From an uncultured Alphaproteobacteria bacterium (GTDB lineage: Bacteria > Pseudomonadota > Alphaproteobacteria > RF32 > CAG-239), in NCBI GenBank assembly GCA_910577205.1, contig CAJTMA010000002.1:123136-187135 (forward strand): a stretch of 64,000 nt of DNA, read 5' to 3'. Of the stretch, positions 35,032 through 57,893 are shown piece by piece (the first letter of the stretch is position 1; each line of letters begins with the position of its first letter). The position numbers were made by a program, and so were the translations under genes. A model generated the notes under the pieces. The model was not told where the DNA came from. It did not search any database and worked only from the letters and a program-made list of their open reading frames with translations.

Positions 35032-35108
35032 CGGGATGTAGCGCAGCCTGGTAGCGCATTTGCATGGGGTGCAAGTGGTCGCTGGTTCGAATCCAGTCAT
35101 CCCGACCA
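35032..35108 (+). tRNA. tRNA-Pro (anticodon GGG)
   Basis: 77-nt cloverleaf: acceptor CGGGATG/CATCCCG, D-arm GCGC-AGCCTGGTA-GCGC, anticodon stem TTTGC/GCAAG with loop ATGGGGT, T-arm GCTGG-TTCGAAT-CCAGT, 3-prime CCA encoded. Confidence 0.9.
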
Positions 35109-52727: not shown

Positions 52728-53519
52728 TTAATAACTGATATAGACTTCGGCGCGGCGGTTTAAGCGCTCGCCTTCGGGCATAACTTCCAAATAAGCCGGA
52801 CGATTGTCAGACATCGCCTCGACCAAGATTTTAGACGCGGGCATTCCGGCACGGCGCAATGCCGCAGCGACAGCTTCAGCTCTTTCCTGAGATACTTTAA
52901 AGTTTGCCATTTTATGACTGGCCATATCCGTATTGCGGGTGCGGCTGGAGGCAAAGCCCATCACCCGGACAAAAGCGTTATTGCGTTTGGCTTCGCGGAC
53001 AATCTGGCGGATTTTGGCATTAGAACCGGCTGCCAAAGCAGAACCGCCATTATCAAAGTAAAAAGTTTCGGCCAAATAAGTTACGCTGGGAATAACCGGT
53101 GCGGCTTTTGAGGGGGATGCAGGTTTGGACACAGAAGATTTAGCTGCTGTTTTCTGTTGTTTTTTGCTTGTTTTTTTAACAGGGGCATCAGCTTCCTGGT
53201 CAAAAGGGACACCGAAGAAATCAACATCTTCACCGTCAAAGACCGACTCTTCCTTGTTCAAATCTCCCGCGTCAGCTACAATTATCGGCGTTGTTTTGGC
53301 GGGAACAACCGTTTCGACAATGTTCTCGTCATCATAAGCGATATTTTTTCCATCGCTCAGCAGCCCGTTACCCTCTTTAAGGACGCGTTCGCCCTGCTCA
53401 GAAACCATTTCGGAAGACTCATCTTCGATTTCGGGAAAAGAAGCGCTGGTACAGGACACAGACAAAAACAAAGCACTGCCCAACACTGCCGTAACTCTCA
53501 CATTTTTCAACAAAGACAT
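52728..53519 (-). CDS. OmpA-family peptidoglycan-binding lipoprotein
   Basis: Lipobox LSVSC. C-terminal OmpA_C domain (FDNGGSA...NRRAEVYI). Start at 53519 or at 53543; both are ATG. Confidence 0.75.
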   Translation of the reverse strand: MSLLKNVRVTAVLGSALFLSVSCTSASFPEIEDESSEMVSEQGERVLKEGNGLLSDGKNIAYDDENIVETVVPAKTTPIIVADAGDLNKEESVFDGEDVDFFGVPFDQEADAPVKKTSKKQQKTAAKSSVSKPASPSKAAPVIPSVTYLAETFYFDNGGSALAAGSNAKIRQIVREAKRNNAFVRVMGFASSRTRNTDMASHKMANFKVSQERAEAVAAALRRAGMPASKILVEAMSDNRPAYLEVMPEGERLNRRAEVYISY

Positions 53520-53731
53520 TTGATAAACCCTAATTAAAATCATCTAGAATCATAACCGCTTGTTGTCTTCAAAGCGGCGCTTGGATATATTGATAACGTA
53601 ATAACAAGATTAAAACAAGAACAAAAATAAATACAAACAGAAAAATATACGCGCTTAACTTATTAAAAATATTTGTGTTTATCATATAACTGGTGTATAA
53701 TTCAGACCTAAATGTTATGAAAGGACGCAAG

Positions 53732-54271
53732 ATGGCAGTTCCGGCAACGGATACGGCAATTGATGTTGCTTATTGGTTTTTTAACCGGGCAGAAAAAGAC
53801 GGTCTTTACCTTGAGACGGAGAATATGCAGTATTTGCTGTTTTTGGCTCAGGTTCATTATGCCATGGCTTATAATATGGAAATGCTGACTCCCAGCTTGT
53901 TTGTCTGCAATCACAGCGGTTTTTTTGAGCCTAACCTTAAACGCATTTTTGCCATGGGCAGACCATTTATGCCTCCGGTTAAATTTCCTCAGAAAATAAA
54001 TGCTTTTCTTGAGGGAATCTGGCAAAAATATGGTTCTTTGCCTCTTGCCCGACTAGAAAAACTTATTAAAACTTCCTCCGCATTTAAAAATAATTGTTTG
54101 GAAGGAACGCTTAATACCATCGATTTCAAATCCGTGGTCGACAGTTTCATCAAAGCCGGCAAAAAAAATCAACAGAATAATGCCTTTTCAGATAATCGCA
54201 AAAAAGTTATGCTTTCGCAAAACGGCCCGGTCGTTGTTTCTAAATGGCAACCGCGGAAAATTGACACCTAA
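53732..54271 (+). CDS. Panacea (DUF4065)-domain-like protein, candidate antitoxin of a PanAT-type TA module
   Basis: IDVAYWFFNRAEKDG...NMQYLLFLAQVHYAMAYN...LTPSLFVCNHSGFFEPNL parallels the Panacea consensus (IANYFL...LKLQKLLYYAQGWHLA...PLFDE..EAWKHGPVVPEV). AAGGA RBS 6 nt before ATG 53732. Confidence 0.45.
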   Translation: MAVPATDTAIDVAYWFFNRAEKDGLYLETENMQYLLFLAQVHYAMAYNMEMLTPSLFVCNHSGFFEPNLKRIFAMGRPFMPPVKFPQKINAFLEGIWQKYGSLPLARLEKLIKTSSAFKNNCLEGTLNTIDFKSVVDSFIKAGKKNQQNNAFSDNRKKVMLSQNGPVVVSKWQPRKIDT

Positions 54272-54287
54272 TCCAAAGGAGATGACT

Positions 54288-54845
54288 ATGAGCAAATTTT
54301 TAAATTTATTTCTGGCTTTAATGATTATTGCCGGCTGTTCCCCGAAAAAAGAAGACGGCAATCTGGTTATCTCTACAGAAAACGGAGATGTCATTTATAA
54401 TGTTGAGGAAGCCCAAAAGCCCGAAGAACTGGAAAAAGGCCTTATGAACCGTGAACAGTTGGCTGAAAATGGCGGAATGATTTTTGATTTATCCAAAGTC
54501 GACAATCAGGTTGCCATGTGGATGAAAGATACGCAACTCTCTTTGGATATGCTGTTTGTCAATGCTAACGGGAAAATTTTCTTTATCAAAGAAAAAGCGA
54601 CACCGATGTCCGAAGAGTTGATTATCGCCCCCGAACCGGCGATGGCTGTGGTTGAGCTTAATGCCGGAGATGTTGAAAAACACGGGATTAAAATCGGCGA
54701 TACAGTCAAACATCACTTTTTCAGCGATTACAATAAAGAAATTTATGAAGCTGACGGCAAGCTTCCACCGCGTGAAGAAACAGCCATGCCCGAGGAAGCA
54801 GAAGAAATTGTTGACGAAGTTTCAGAAGTTCCTACCGCAGAATAG
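54288..54845 (+). CDS. DUF192 (COG1430) family lipoprotein
   Basis: Lipoprotein signal MSKFLNLFLALMIIAGCS. AAGGAG RBS 6 nt before ATG 54288. Acidic C-terminal tail. 16 nt downstream of the Panacea-like gene. Confidence 0.6.
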   Translation: MSKFLNLFLALMIIAGCSPKKEDGNLVISTENGDVIYNVEEAQKPEELEKGLMNREQLAENGGMIFDLSKVDNQVAMWMKDTQLSLDMLFVNANGKIFFIKEKATPMSEELIIAPEPAMAVVELNAGDVEKHGIKIGDTVKHHFFSDYNKEIYEADGKLPPREETAMPEEAEEIVDEVSEVPTAE

Positions 54846-54868
54846 TTGTCTGCTTCTTATAAAATTCA

Positions 54869-54894
54869 GCGCCCTTTTCCTGGGCGCTTTTTTA
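54869..54894 (+). terminator. Rho-independent terminator of the DUF192 gene
   Basis: gcgccc-ttttcct-gggcgc hairpin plus TTTTTT. Confidence 0.7.
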
Positions 54895-54907
54895 TTAAAC
54901 TTTTCAT

Positions 54908-54960
54908 TATTCTGTATAGTTTTCCGTAATGATTAACGTTGCATCTCCGGTATAGCTACC
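54908..54960 (-). pseudogene. 3-prime remnant (about 17 codons, ...YTGDATLIITENYTE-stop) of a paralog of CDS 55736..56992
   Basis: About 65 bp (54887-54950) are near-identical to 55717-55780, which encodes the C-terminus SGDVTLIITENYTE of the intact gene. An in-frame stop lies just upstream of the fragment. Confidence 0.45.
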
Positions 54961-55217
54961 TCATCGTTATAAACCAATTCTACTTTAATTGTTCCTTTAT
55001 TTGGGATATAGCTGTTTTTCTATTTTGTCCATTTTCGAAAATAATAGTTTACAGACCATATATTTTGTGATATAAAAAAATGTATTTCAAATTATTATAG
55101 ATGCTGTATGTATGTTTTCATTTGTTTGTGGTTTTTACCATTACTTTGAAATATCTTGCTTTGTAATGATTTGATTAATTTATATCAGAACCTAAACCTA
55201 ACTAAAACATAAAAAAA

Positions 55218-55691
55218 ATGAAAACAAAAAAAATGAAATGGGCAGTTGTTGCCGTTACAGTTATTACGTTTTTATCGTATCTAATTTTCTTTCGCATAGA
55301 TGTTCCTGAGGGATTGATAAAGGGACGGATGTTTATATCCGAAGAAAAAACCTCAAAGCTGACAGTTACAGACCAGCAAAAAGATGTGATTTGGCTTGAG
55401 GATGGAACGATTTGGGGACATCCTAGCTTTTCGGAACTAGATCTTAAGGGAAAAAAAATCCTTTTGTATGGGGCCAATGAATTCAGATACGATGGTGAAT
55501 TTTTTGAAGAACAACTGTACTATAAAGGAGAACCTGTAAATCATGTGGTTTCTGACAGGTCACGGGTGAGGCTTCTCACATCTACTACTGATGACAGCTT
55601 TCTCTTTGGCTCATTTCTCATTGTGATGAGAAATGAAACAGAAAGTGATATATATCACCTACTGGGATGTTATCAATTTGTACAAAAATAA
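55218..55691 (+). CDS. Hypothetical membrane-anchored protein
   Basis: 157 aa with an N-terminal TM helix. No SD motif. Confidence 0.45.
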   Translation: MKTKKMKWAVVAVTVITFLSYLIFFRIDVPEGLIKGRMFISEEKTSKLTVTDQQKDVIWLEDGTIWGHPSFSELDLKGKKILLYGANEFRYDGEFFEEQLYYKGEPVNHVVSDRSRVRLLTSTTDDSFLFGSFLIVMRNETESDIYHLLGCYQFVQK

Positions 55692-55696
55692 AAAAA

Positions 55697-55722
55697 GCGC
55701 CCTAGAAACAGGGCGTTTTTTT
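55697..55722. terminator. Bidirectional terminator shared by convergent genes 55218..55691 (+) and 55736..56992 (-)
   Basis: cgccc-tagaaaca-gggcg hairpin flanked by A6 and T7. Confidence 0.7.
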
Positions 55723-55735
55723 ATTAAACTTTTCG

Positions 55736-56992
55736 TTATTCTGTATAATTTTCCGTAATGATTAATGTTACATCTCCTGAGCAAGTAGCAATAGTTTCAT
55801 CATTATCATACTCCCAAGCAATCTTAACAGAACCCTTATTATAAGCGTATTCATGAAGATATTCGCCGCTATCTTCGGTTAAAAACTCCACGCCCAGAGG
55901 GAGATTTGAACAAGTCTTCGAGAAAGAAGATATATAAGCTCCGTCCCCGATATAACCAATACGCTCCGCTCCCGGATCTAAAATAATTTCTGCCCAGTTA
56001 CTCCAAGCATTAGCGCTGACATTCCCTGAAAGAGCAACCTCTGTTACCGTCCCCCTCTTCCCTGTGCTGCTCTCTACAACAATGCTGCTATCAGCTTGTT
56101 TTACAGAACATACATTTCCATTCTTTTGTCCTACAAAATTTAAATACAAATACCATTTTTCATTCGTACATACATCACCACTTTCTTTCGGCTCGCCATA
56201 ATAAACCACCGGGCGAACGTAATCATCACTATTTTTGTAATTTGTATTTTTAGTGTTATCGCTCTTGTCAAATTCCCATGCCGTCTCTTTATCATACTCA
56301 CAAGAAGACCAATACCATTTTGCTTCAAATGGCACAGTTCCATAATCTTTTAACATTGCTATTGTTGTGTCTAACAGCTTCCCAACAGAATACATTTGTG
56401 AAAATTCTTTAATGCTGGGCAGAAACCATTTTGTTTTCTTACAGAAATCCTGAGTACATCCCGCAGGCTGATAGCTATTGGCTGCCGTCGCCGCCGGCGT
56501 TCCGCCACAGCTGCTTCCACAGGCTAATATTTTATCCGTATTAGAACGACCATCCACACTACAACTATCTACCGACGCGGGATTGTCATTATATTGGCAA
56601 TTCGTTAAGTTCGGCATATCATAGCTATTGTTTGACCAATACATCGTTTCACTTCCTGCTGTGCCATCTTTCTTCACGTCAGTCAATGAAACTGCTAATT
56701 TGTTGGTTTCATCAAAAACAATACCTATTGGCGTTTTGCCGGAAATAACATTTTTGCTGACCGTACCGTCGCCATACAAAATCGGCAAAGAATTTTCAGA
56801 GGATTTTTTGGGGCAAAAAACTTTAGACATATCTGTCGGACACTTAACGGCAACTTGCCCCTCACAATCCGCCGCGCTCATCGTATAGCCTAAGTCAGCG
56901 CAGTCCGGCGCAAGGGTACAAACAGCATAAAGGGGAGAAGAATAAAGGATTGTTCCGGATAATAAAACGGACGCAAACAGGGGAGTTTTCAT
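55736..56992 (-). CDS. Secreted cysteine-rich protein (family member 2)
   Basis: Signal peptide MKTPLFASVLLSGTILYSSPLYA. 27 Cys. Same architecture class as 2781..4598. Its 3-prime end and terminator are duplicated at 54887-54960. Confidence 0.6.
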   Translation of the reverse strand: MKTPLFASVLLSGTILYSSPLYAVCTLAPDCADLGYTMSAADCEGQVAVKCPTDMSKVFCPKKSSENSLPILYGDGTVSKNVISGKTPIGIVFDETNKLAVSLTDVKKDGTAGSETMYWSNNSYDMPNLTNCQYNDNPASVDSCSVDGRSNTDKILACGSSCGGTPAATAANSYQPAGCTQDFCKKTKWFLPSIKEFSQMYSVGKLLDTTIAMLKDYGTVPFEAKWYWSSCEYDKETAWEFDKSDNTKNTNYKNSDDYVRPVVYYGEPKESGDVCTNEKWYLYLNFVGQKNGNVCSVKQADSSIVVESSTGKRGTVTEVALSGNVSANAWSNWAEIILDPGAERIGYIGDGAYISSFSKTCSNLPLGVEFLTEDSGEYLHEYAYNKGSVKIAWEYDNDETIATCSGDVTLIITENYTE

Positions 56993-57197
56993 AACACACC
57001 TCGTAGATATTACTAAATCAAAACCTGTATTCAGAATATCATACTGTTAGGCATTTGTAAAGGTATTATGAACATGGGGTTTATTTTTGGCTAAAGGAAA
57101 TAGGTAAAACAGCTATGCCGGTATTACGCCAAGGCTATAGCGTGAAGATGAAGCCTCTACCGAGAGCATCATGGGGCAATAGCTATCCCAGATTTTA

Positions 57198-57893
57198 TTA
57201 AAACTCTATATCCGGTTCTATGCCGTATTCGCGGAGGGTTTGAATAATTTCTGCCAGATACAGGCGTTCCGTATAACTGATGATACCGTCAGACGCGCTG
57301 ATTTTCAGAGCTTCGCGAATCAGGTCTTCCACGTCTTCCGGGGTTTGGGTATTCAATTTTTTTACAGCAGCCAAGAAATCTTGTTCATTTGGCGTCAAAG
57401 CTTTCAGATAGCTACTGATGTATTGGTCACTCAAGATTTGTGTCTGCGGAAGGCGGTGCATAATGTAATCGCGCAGAGCCTGATTTTTTATCTGGTTAAA
57501 CTTATCCGTACATTTGGCCATAAATGTCAGGATTATCAAATTGTCTTTTATTGGGGCAAGAAGTTTAAAGTCAGAATCCTGTTTTCCGGAATCTCCGCTG
57601 CAAGCCTCCATTCCCTGACGGGACAGGTAATCACAATAATCGGCAATAAAAAGTTCCGCCGAAGCGTAAAATTTTTCATTGCTCAAATCCAGAAAATCTT
57701 TGATGTAGACGCTGTCAATAACCTGCGAGCGTTTTGTGCGATAGAAATACAAATCCAGAAAAACCAGATTGTCTTTCTGCCAGATGTTTTTTACCGCGAC
57801 ATTTTCTTCCCGCGTTTTTCCATTGGCGATTAAATGCACCAGCATATTATAAAAATGCAACGGACAGGACAGATGGCCGGTTTCCCCCATCAA
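57198..57893 (-). CDS. Hypothetical protein overlapping the mfd stop by 4 nt (ATGA); C-terminus weakly TerB-like
   Basis: 231 aa. ISASDGIISYTERLYLAEIIQTL segment. Confidence 0.5.
   Translation of the reverse strand: MMGETGHLSCPLHFYNMLVHLIANGKTREENVAVKNIWQKDNLVFLDLYFYRTKRSQVIDSVYIKDFLDLSNEKFYASAELFIADYCDYLSRQGMEACSGDSGKQDSDFKLLAPIKDNLIILTFMAKCTDKFNQIKNQALRDYIMHRLPQTQILSDQYISSYLKALTPNEQDFLAAVKKLNTQTPEDVEDLIREALKISASDGIISYTERLYLAEIIQTLREYGIEPDIEF

Follow-up and report, generated by a model that had tools for sequence, protein, structure and literature searches.

The Panacea domain (PF13274/DUF4065) defines PanA, the antitoxin of the PanAT toxin-antitoxin (TA) pairs, and canonical PanA proteins are mobile, with a phylogeny that is incongruent with taxonomy (Kurata et al. 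2022, PMC8832971). The GPV motif in strand β2 was found to be important for neutralisation in the PanA of V. harveyi, and about half of the DUF4065 proteins lie outside TA-like loci (PMC8832971). One Panacea protein, the Caulobacter type VI antitoxin SocA (NF047745), is a ClpXP adaptor (PMC8832971, PMC5422525), and DUF4065 proteins are homologous to the C-terminal domain of DarG (7YK3, from M. tuberculosis DarTG) (PMC13621843). Here we analysed a stretch of 64,000 nucleotides from an uncultured alphaproteobacterium (contig CAJTMA010000002.1, positions 123,136 to 187,135; hereafter the 64-kb window), in which a gene for a Panacea-like protein, here named PanL, is followed by a gene for a DUF192/COG1430 lipoprotein. 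We consider it fairly probable that PanL is a domesticated, constrained Panacea-fold protein that has no conserved partner gene and acts in trans, and that it came to adjoin DUF192 by synteny collapse rather than as one half of a TA module.

A first-pass annotation of this DNA had aligned PanL to the Panacea domain by eye and had proposed a PF13274 search of its reading frame as a check. This search was negative: in an hmmscan against Pfam, the window protein matched no family at a threshold as loose as E ≤ 1, and the PF13274 gathering score (25.7 bits) was not reached. NCBIfam and PADLOC scans likewise gave no match, a PHROGs scan gave only phrog_1281 (function unknown; E = 8e-4), searching PDB sequences with a profile yielded chance matches only, and Foldseek found no match to the predicted model in the PDB. 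The 135 close homologues are all unannotated and come from alphaproteobacterial metagenome-assembled genomes (MAGs) of the gut and rumen. Weak matches to PF13274, the family matched most commonly, appeared in 8 out of 70 close homologues (best E = 0.0025). When 1.8 billion proteins were searched with a profile built from these 70 homologues, 505 cluster representatives matched at E ≤ 1e-3, and 22 of the 78 distant relatives from the family-profile search matched PF13274 at E ≤ 1e-3. The orthologues of Telmatospirillum sp. J64-1 (locus L077, 34.3 bits) and Pararhodospirillum oryzae (L080, 30.5 bits) exceeded the gathering score.

We then compared profiles with gp27 of Listeria phage B025, an independent canonical PanA (PF13274, E = 7e-19) that Kurata et al. 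list as the antitoxin in one of their pairs (PMC8832971). Using a broad alignment of 79 sequences (A2; the window PanL as first row and the 78 distant relatives), hhalign aligned PanL with gp27 over 93 columns with a probability of 95.7% (E = 1e-8); the profile of close homologues alone gave 33%. A subfamily member from Oceanibacterium is named a Panacea-domain protein in NCBI and UniRef, and a search of predicted viral structures (BFVD) with the PanL model gave template modelling scores of 0.6–0.74, with one lower-ranked match named a SocA-like Panacea protein. An additional homologue search with alignment A4 yielded 3 proteins only. Judged from sequence profiles and the predicted model, PanL is a very diverged member of the Panacea/DarG C-terminal domain fold superfamily and is predicted to be cytoplasmic. 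The assignment made by eye therefore stands at the level of the superfamily, on the strength of the hhalign result and of the orthologues that pass the Pfam threshold, whereas the window protein itself has no PF13274 match. A spurious resemblance, with PanL stemming from an unrelated helical family, would fit the empty Pfam, NCBIfam and PADLOC scans, the empty Foldseek search and the low probability from the narrow profile; however, the broad-profile alignment, the orthologues above the gathering score, the database name of the Oceanibacterium protein and the BFVD matches all speak against it, and we regard it as extremely improbable. Within the superfamily, PanL is distant from the C-terminal domain of DarG (10% sequence identity); the 179-aa protein has no macrodomain match, and no DarT-like gene is found beside it.

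The predicted structure of PanL matches the Panacea fold, with a central helix, five surrounding helices and a small three-stranded sheet. Beyond fold and detectable homology, PanL resembles PanA in a central helix carrying LQxLLyLAQ, in a small β-sheet with a conserved glycine at the GPV position, in a size of approximately 170–180 aa, and in gene order, being encoded first in an operon of two closely spaced genes. However, the window protein escapes the Pfam model and has GFF in place of GPV, the proline being gone in the gut clade. Across the 70 homologues G63 never varies, and conservation of F64 is at least 90%. PanL further differs from PanA in an extra invariant C-terminal motif behind a linker of variable length (Table 1). 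The linker varies widely among distant lineages and occupies a block of approximately 175 alignment columns. The gut-clade consensus of the motif, SQNGPVVVSxWxPRK, is present in every member, and 70 sequences show no variation at S162, Q163, G165, P166, V167, V169, W172 and P174; a G..V..W.P core, often written as …RFTxDGRxVTRWxPKRR, is retained in 57 of the 79 A2 sequences. A profile of the motif had no counterpart in the PDB, where the best match was ribosomal protein bL35 (E = 0.37, not significant), and no family counterpart was found for it.

Tethered adaptors of the SspB type consist of a substrate-binding domain, a flexible linker and a C-terminal ClpX-binding peptide. PanL, with its folded domain, variable linker and conserved C-terminal peptide, would share this architecture by analogy only; the two proteins have no relationship in sequence or fold.

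Both genes reported by the first-pass annotation were found, separated by 16 nt on the same strand. The hexamers of the putative promoter upstream of PanL (TTGTGT-17-TATAAT) and their spacing were found again at the equivalent site in relatives; because the –35 element matches only three of six consensus positions, the promoter was not listed by a consensus scan. Together with the predicted terminator behind the DUF192 gene, these elements suggest that PanL and DUF192 form a two-gene operon with its own promoter and terminator. The 188-bp AT-rich region upstream of PanL is shared with a divergent gene for an OmpA-family lipoprotein (52728..53543, minus strand). Farther out, this side holds RecJ, DUF502 and BamE, and the opposite side holds a TerB-like gene and Mfd. 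PanL occurs once in the window.

We surveyed this context with one genome per species, obtaining 80 loci (numbered with the prefix L) from 80 different assemblies. In approximately 70 of these 80 species-representative genomes, all from gut and rumen, the order was DUF502(–), RecJ(–) and OmpA-like(–), followed by PanL(+) and DUF192(+). The identity of PanL to the window protein followed that of RecJ (Spearman 0.62, n = 71), and the ratio of nonsynonymous to synonymous substitution rates (dN/dS) of PanL was 0.06–0.14 in unsaturated pairs, similar to that of neighbour genes and indicative of purifying selection. A tblastn search with the window PanL and a Telmatospirillum orthologue found no match, at the BLAST level, in 72,556 plasmids and 50,697 phages. 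The fixed location, the identity that tracks RecJ, the low dN/dS and the absence of plasmid and phage matches together mark a core gene with vertical inheritance. Thus, the patchy distribution, incongruent phylogeny and partner swapping that characterise PanAT systems as mobile are absent here, and in contrast to PanA, PanL is single-copy and vertical, and was not detected on plasmids or phages at the BLAST level. A PanL–DUF192 fusion was considered for loci L020–L022 and was ruled out, as a TAG stop is present.

Outside the gut clade, PanL does not adjoin DUF192. The flanks of PanL in Oceanibacterium, in a Rhodospirillales MAG and in several metagenomic contigs show no relation between lineages and include CoxG, ChaN, YdbH-like, DctM, pspABC, RadC and CHASE2 cyclase genes. 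Four Telmatospirillum genomes have the order geneU(+), PanL(+), TM162(+), ChaN(–) and DUF192(+), and a freshwater contig has PanL(+), ChaN(–), CitMHS, CSD and DUF192(+); in these genomes and this contig DUF192 lies 1.7–3.4 kb downstream of PanL on the same strand. Because DUF192 is already downstream and co-oriented in these relatives, the adjacency in the gut clade looks like a collapse of synteny. The subfamily ranges over free-living lineages of the Rhodospirillales type and a large clade of MAGs from gut and rumen. Compared across this range, the PanL subfamily is, by its sequences and gene neighbourhoods, an old alphaproteobacterial one, chromosomal, present in single copy and passed on vertically, and its lineages share no conserved neighbour gene.

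Two genes beside PanL in the Telmatospirillum-type genomes deserve description. GeneU encodes 135 aa with a conserved C-terminus, YEFNMKLFAGAY..QGSVINR (L073:5456-5863; also in L072, L075, L078 and L084). TM162 encodes 162 aa with two hydrophobic predicted transmembrane (TM) stretches and a charged C-terminal region (L073:6598-7086; also in L072, L075, L078 and L084). Neither has a significant match to a Pfam or NCBIfam family. Both were considered as conserved PanL partners and dropped, as they have no family matches and do not lie beside PanL in other lineages.

The state of the GPV motif divides the subfamily along the same boundary. Relatives outside the gut clade retain GP[VILM], canonically GP[VILM]EPN, and in a comparison of the window with L069 and L072–L088 the proline is kept in 16 out of 16 loci in which PanL does not adjoin DUF192. 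In every readable DUF192-adjacent locus it is substituted (GF, GI, GV, GL, GY or GA), with five loci unreadable. L069 (UBA5343), a basal gut-clade genome, looks intermediate, being DUF192-adjacent with GAIEP and an outgroup-like C-terminus. Because proline loss and adjacency both mark one clade, each may be a single event.

The identification of the second gene as a DUF192/COG1430 lipoprotein proved correct: its product matched PF02643 over model positions 2–96 of 96 (E = 1.1e-26; 93.2 bits against a cut-off of 27) and has a lipobox (LMIIAG|C17) as well as a signal peptide. Among solved structures the closest relatives are 3pjy and 3m7a, both of them uncharacterised structural-genomics proteins. 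An exported lipoprotein (signal peptide and Cys) was predicted in 73 out of 73 orthologous loci, 65 of which have a strict lipobox. Because of this Sec/lipoprotein signal, DUF192 and PanL would end up in different compartments. No defence or toxin model matched the DUF192 protein, and DUF192 does not occur in the searched parts of the supplementary files of Kurata et al. (PMC8832971).

These results are consistent with the following scenario. The gut clade most likely lost the intervening genes (TM162, ChaN and others) during genome reduction, which would have brought PanL beside DUF192. The Panacea-like domain may bind a client protein whose gene lies elsewhere, and the complex of PanL and client may be docked onto a conserved cellular machine by the tethered peptide at the C-terminus, while DUF192 would be exported to the envelope and act independently of PanL.

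Several observations weigh against this scenario. The gap between PanL and DUF192 is only –8 to +37 nt in approximately 70 genomes, with frequent overlaps of 4 and 8 nt, and such overlapping ends suggest translational coupling. The identity of PanL correlates slightly better with that of DUF192 (0.68) than with that of RecJ. DUF192 adjacency and the absence of the proline from GPV match exactly, and the proline loss could reflect adaptation to a new partner. TM162, a conserved protein with two TM stretches, is encoded 16–130 nt after PanL in the Telmatospirillum-type genomes, so that co-oriented neighbours are not wholly absent from the subfamily. With regard to docking, the C-terminal hairpin is modelled with low confidence (predicted local distance difference test, pLDDT, 58–60), and an adaptor role of the motif would be a purely architectural argument drawn from analogy. 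Finally, the in silico criteria of Kurata et al. for PanAT pairs are a gap of at most 100 nt, occurrence in at least two species, an operon of at most three genes and the antitoxin gene first, and by these criteria the PanL–DUF192 pair would formally count as PanAT (PMC8832971). However, because the five-gene block is syntenic and the adjacency is missing outside the clade, these criteria cannot separate the inheritance of an operon from TA pairing.

The first-pass annotation had reported no recognised toxin beside PanL, which we confirmed, and had left three possibilities: that DUF192 is an undescribed toxin partner, that a very small toxin gene is hidden nearby, or that PanL is orphaned. Were PanL and DUF192 a genuine PanAT-type pair that has so far escaped description, the harm would come from DUF192 or from its precursor before export, and the task of PanL in the cytoplasm would be to neutralise or chaperone this protein. 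The tight operon with its own promoter and terminator, the short gaps in approximately 70 species, the antitoxin-first order within the published 100-nt rule and the coincidence of proline loss with pairing would all agree with this, and some validated PanT toxins target membranes (PMC8832971). However, every DUF192 orthologue carries a signal for a compartment other than that of PanL and is part of a fixed housekeeping block. The protein matches no defence or toxin model and is missing from the searched parts of the published supplement. In addition, PanL outside the clade has no adjacent DUF192 (where both occur, other genes lie between them), and the single conserved chromosomal location shows no sign of mobility. 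PanL differs from PanA in having an exported lipoprotein without a recognisable toxin as its neighbour here and no conserved neighbour in most lineages. We consider DUF192 unlikely to be a toxin and such a pair very improbable as a whole; the two genes are probably not a TA module. A hidden toxin fares still worse. The only candidate is a hydrophobic open reading frame (ORF) of 53 aa (38 aa from an internal ATG) with a single TM segment in the divergent intergenic region. Its strong hydrophobicity recalls some membrane-depolarising PanT toxins, and tblastn found similar peptides at the syntenic site in L001–L005 and L011 (E down to 6e-12). In most relatives, however, it has no start codon in frame, and in-frame stops interrupt it (in L010, L013 and L017, among others). 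What is conserved in the shared blocks is the DNA itself, which lies in varying reading frames; the blocks overlap the promoter-like hexamers of the two divergent genes, and AT-rich DNA such as this yields translations rich in F, I and L; the apparent conservation is therefore attributable to promoter motifs at the DNA level, independent of frame. The ORF is also divergent from PanL and hence not co-transcribed, and no other ORF of at least 20 aa is conserved in 53544-53731 or 54846-55217. A toxin gene at this site has next to no likelihood.

The third possibility, an orphaned PanL, is the best of the three; it was supported and extends to the whole subfamily, which lacks a neighbour gene conserved across lineages. 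An orphan could still be an antitoxin that acts in trans, either against a toxin encoded elsewhere in the genome in the manner of SocB or against one borne by a phage or plasmid, and would then serve anti-addiction or immunity. In favour of this, the PanL fold is that of a toxin-binding domain, and the SocA model of NCBIfam is weakly matched by outgroup members of the subfamily (best E = 5e-8). The searched parts of the supplement to PMC8832971 show SocA/SocB-type pairs to be common among Alphaproteobacteria, Rhodospirillales included. However, the matches to the SocA model score no higher than 32.7 bits, where the cut-off is 190, and extend no farther than roughly the first 70 residues, and the window PanL does not match the SocA model at all, its C-terminal half failing to align. 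Because the N-terminal matches lie so far below the cut-off, the subfamily is related to SocA but is not SocA. No SocB-like gene adjoins PanL, an NCBIfam scan of the DUF192 neighbour gave no family named SocB, and no toxin candidate was seen within the 64-kb window. Deep vertical conservation and purifying selection across genomes of differing gene content would fit a housekeeping client better, and we regard an orphan antitoxin as unlikely. SocA, likewise an alphaproteobacterial Panacea protein, nevertheless provides a precedent for the adaptor-like logic that we propose for PanL.

Table 1. Coordinates of features in the 64-kb window.
Feature	Position	Strand	Description
PanL gene	53732..54271	+	ORF, 179 aa; ribosome-binding site AAAGGA 53720-53725, 6 nt upstream of start
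Panacea-like domain, aa 1-130	53732..54121	+	Six predicted helices round central helix 29-46, plus small β-sheet
G63-F64-F65 at GPV-signature position	53918..53926	+	Set opposite GPV of gp27 by hhalign
Low-complexity linker, aa 145-157	54164..54202	+	pLDDT <50 for residues 149-158, disordered in model
Invariant C-terminal motif SQNGPVVVSKWQPRK, aa 162-176	54215..54259	+	Predicted β-hairpin
DUF192/COG1430 lipoprotein gene	54288..54845	+	ORF, 185 aa; ribosome-binding site AAAGGAG 54275-54281; signal peptide/lipobox aa 1-17 (54288-54338); DUF192 domain aa 38-142 (54399-54713); acidic tail
Putative operon promoter	53673..53701	+	TTGTGT 53673-53678, 17-nt spacer, TATAAT 53696-53701; read from sequence
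Predicted intrinsic terminator after DUF192 gene	54868..54895	+	7-bp GC-rich stem, 7-nt loop, T-run
53-aa hydrophobic ORF, judged not a gene	53569..53730	-	Divergent intergenic region
Unannotated 157-aa protein	55218-55691	+	Inside low-GC segment
418-aa Lcl_C/DUF1566-like secreted protein	55736-56992	-	PF07603 E = 3e-6, below threshold
231-aa protein	57198-57893	-	Weak TerB-like C-terminal match, E = 0.0015; just upstream of Mfd, 4-nt overlap with its start

The remaining features lie around the two genes (Table 1). On the minus strand of 53544-53731, a conserved DNA block, TTTTTGTTCTTGT…TTATCAATAT, lies upstream of the OmpA-like gene, and the conserved blocks of this region probably represent two divergent promoters or an operator. 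Between the DUF192 gene and the TerB-like and Mfd genes, positions 54900-57100 form a segment of low GC content (0.31-0.40). This segment is absent from L002–L004 and L011, where the TerB-like gene and Mfd directly follow DUF192; because paralogues of the Lcl_C-like gene occur at differing sites in other loci, it looks like a variable insertion spot. The pairing of the TerB-like gene with Mfd is kept in 11 close relatives (among them L002–L009 and L011). Rfam and tRNA scans found nothing close to the PanL–DUF192 locus; the sole match of Rfam and ARAGORN in the 64-kb window was a tRNA-Pro(GGG) at 35032-35108.

The present analysis assigns no function to DUF192 and uncovers no new toxin. A bolder extension, which we offer as speculation and hold to be unlikely, is that the PanL subfamily is the first Panacea-fold lineage in a housekeeping, non-TA role. 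On this view PanL would serve as a tethered adaptor or as an anti-factor, its invariant C-terminal G..V..W.P hairpin docking to a conserved machine (an AAA+ protease or the membrane, for example). Rewiring in the gut clade would have changed GPV to GF and coupled PanL translationally to DUF192, which would hint at a link to envelope biogenesis or quality control. If the reading that we favour is true, that of a vertically inherited PanL brought beside DUF192 by synteny collapse, the locus is a warning against neighbourhood-based TA prediction, because an inherited operon can pass the usual in silico criteria. It would also establish a Panacea subfamily that is inherited vertically, lacks a conserved partner gene and carries a conserved, docking-like motif at the C-terminus. 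The PanL subfamily could thus reveal a role of the Panacea fold beyond toxin neutralisation.

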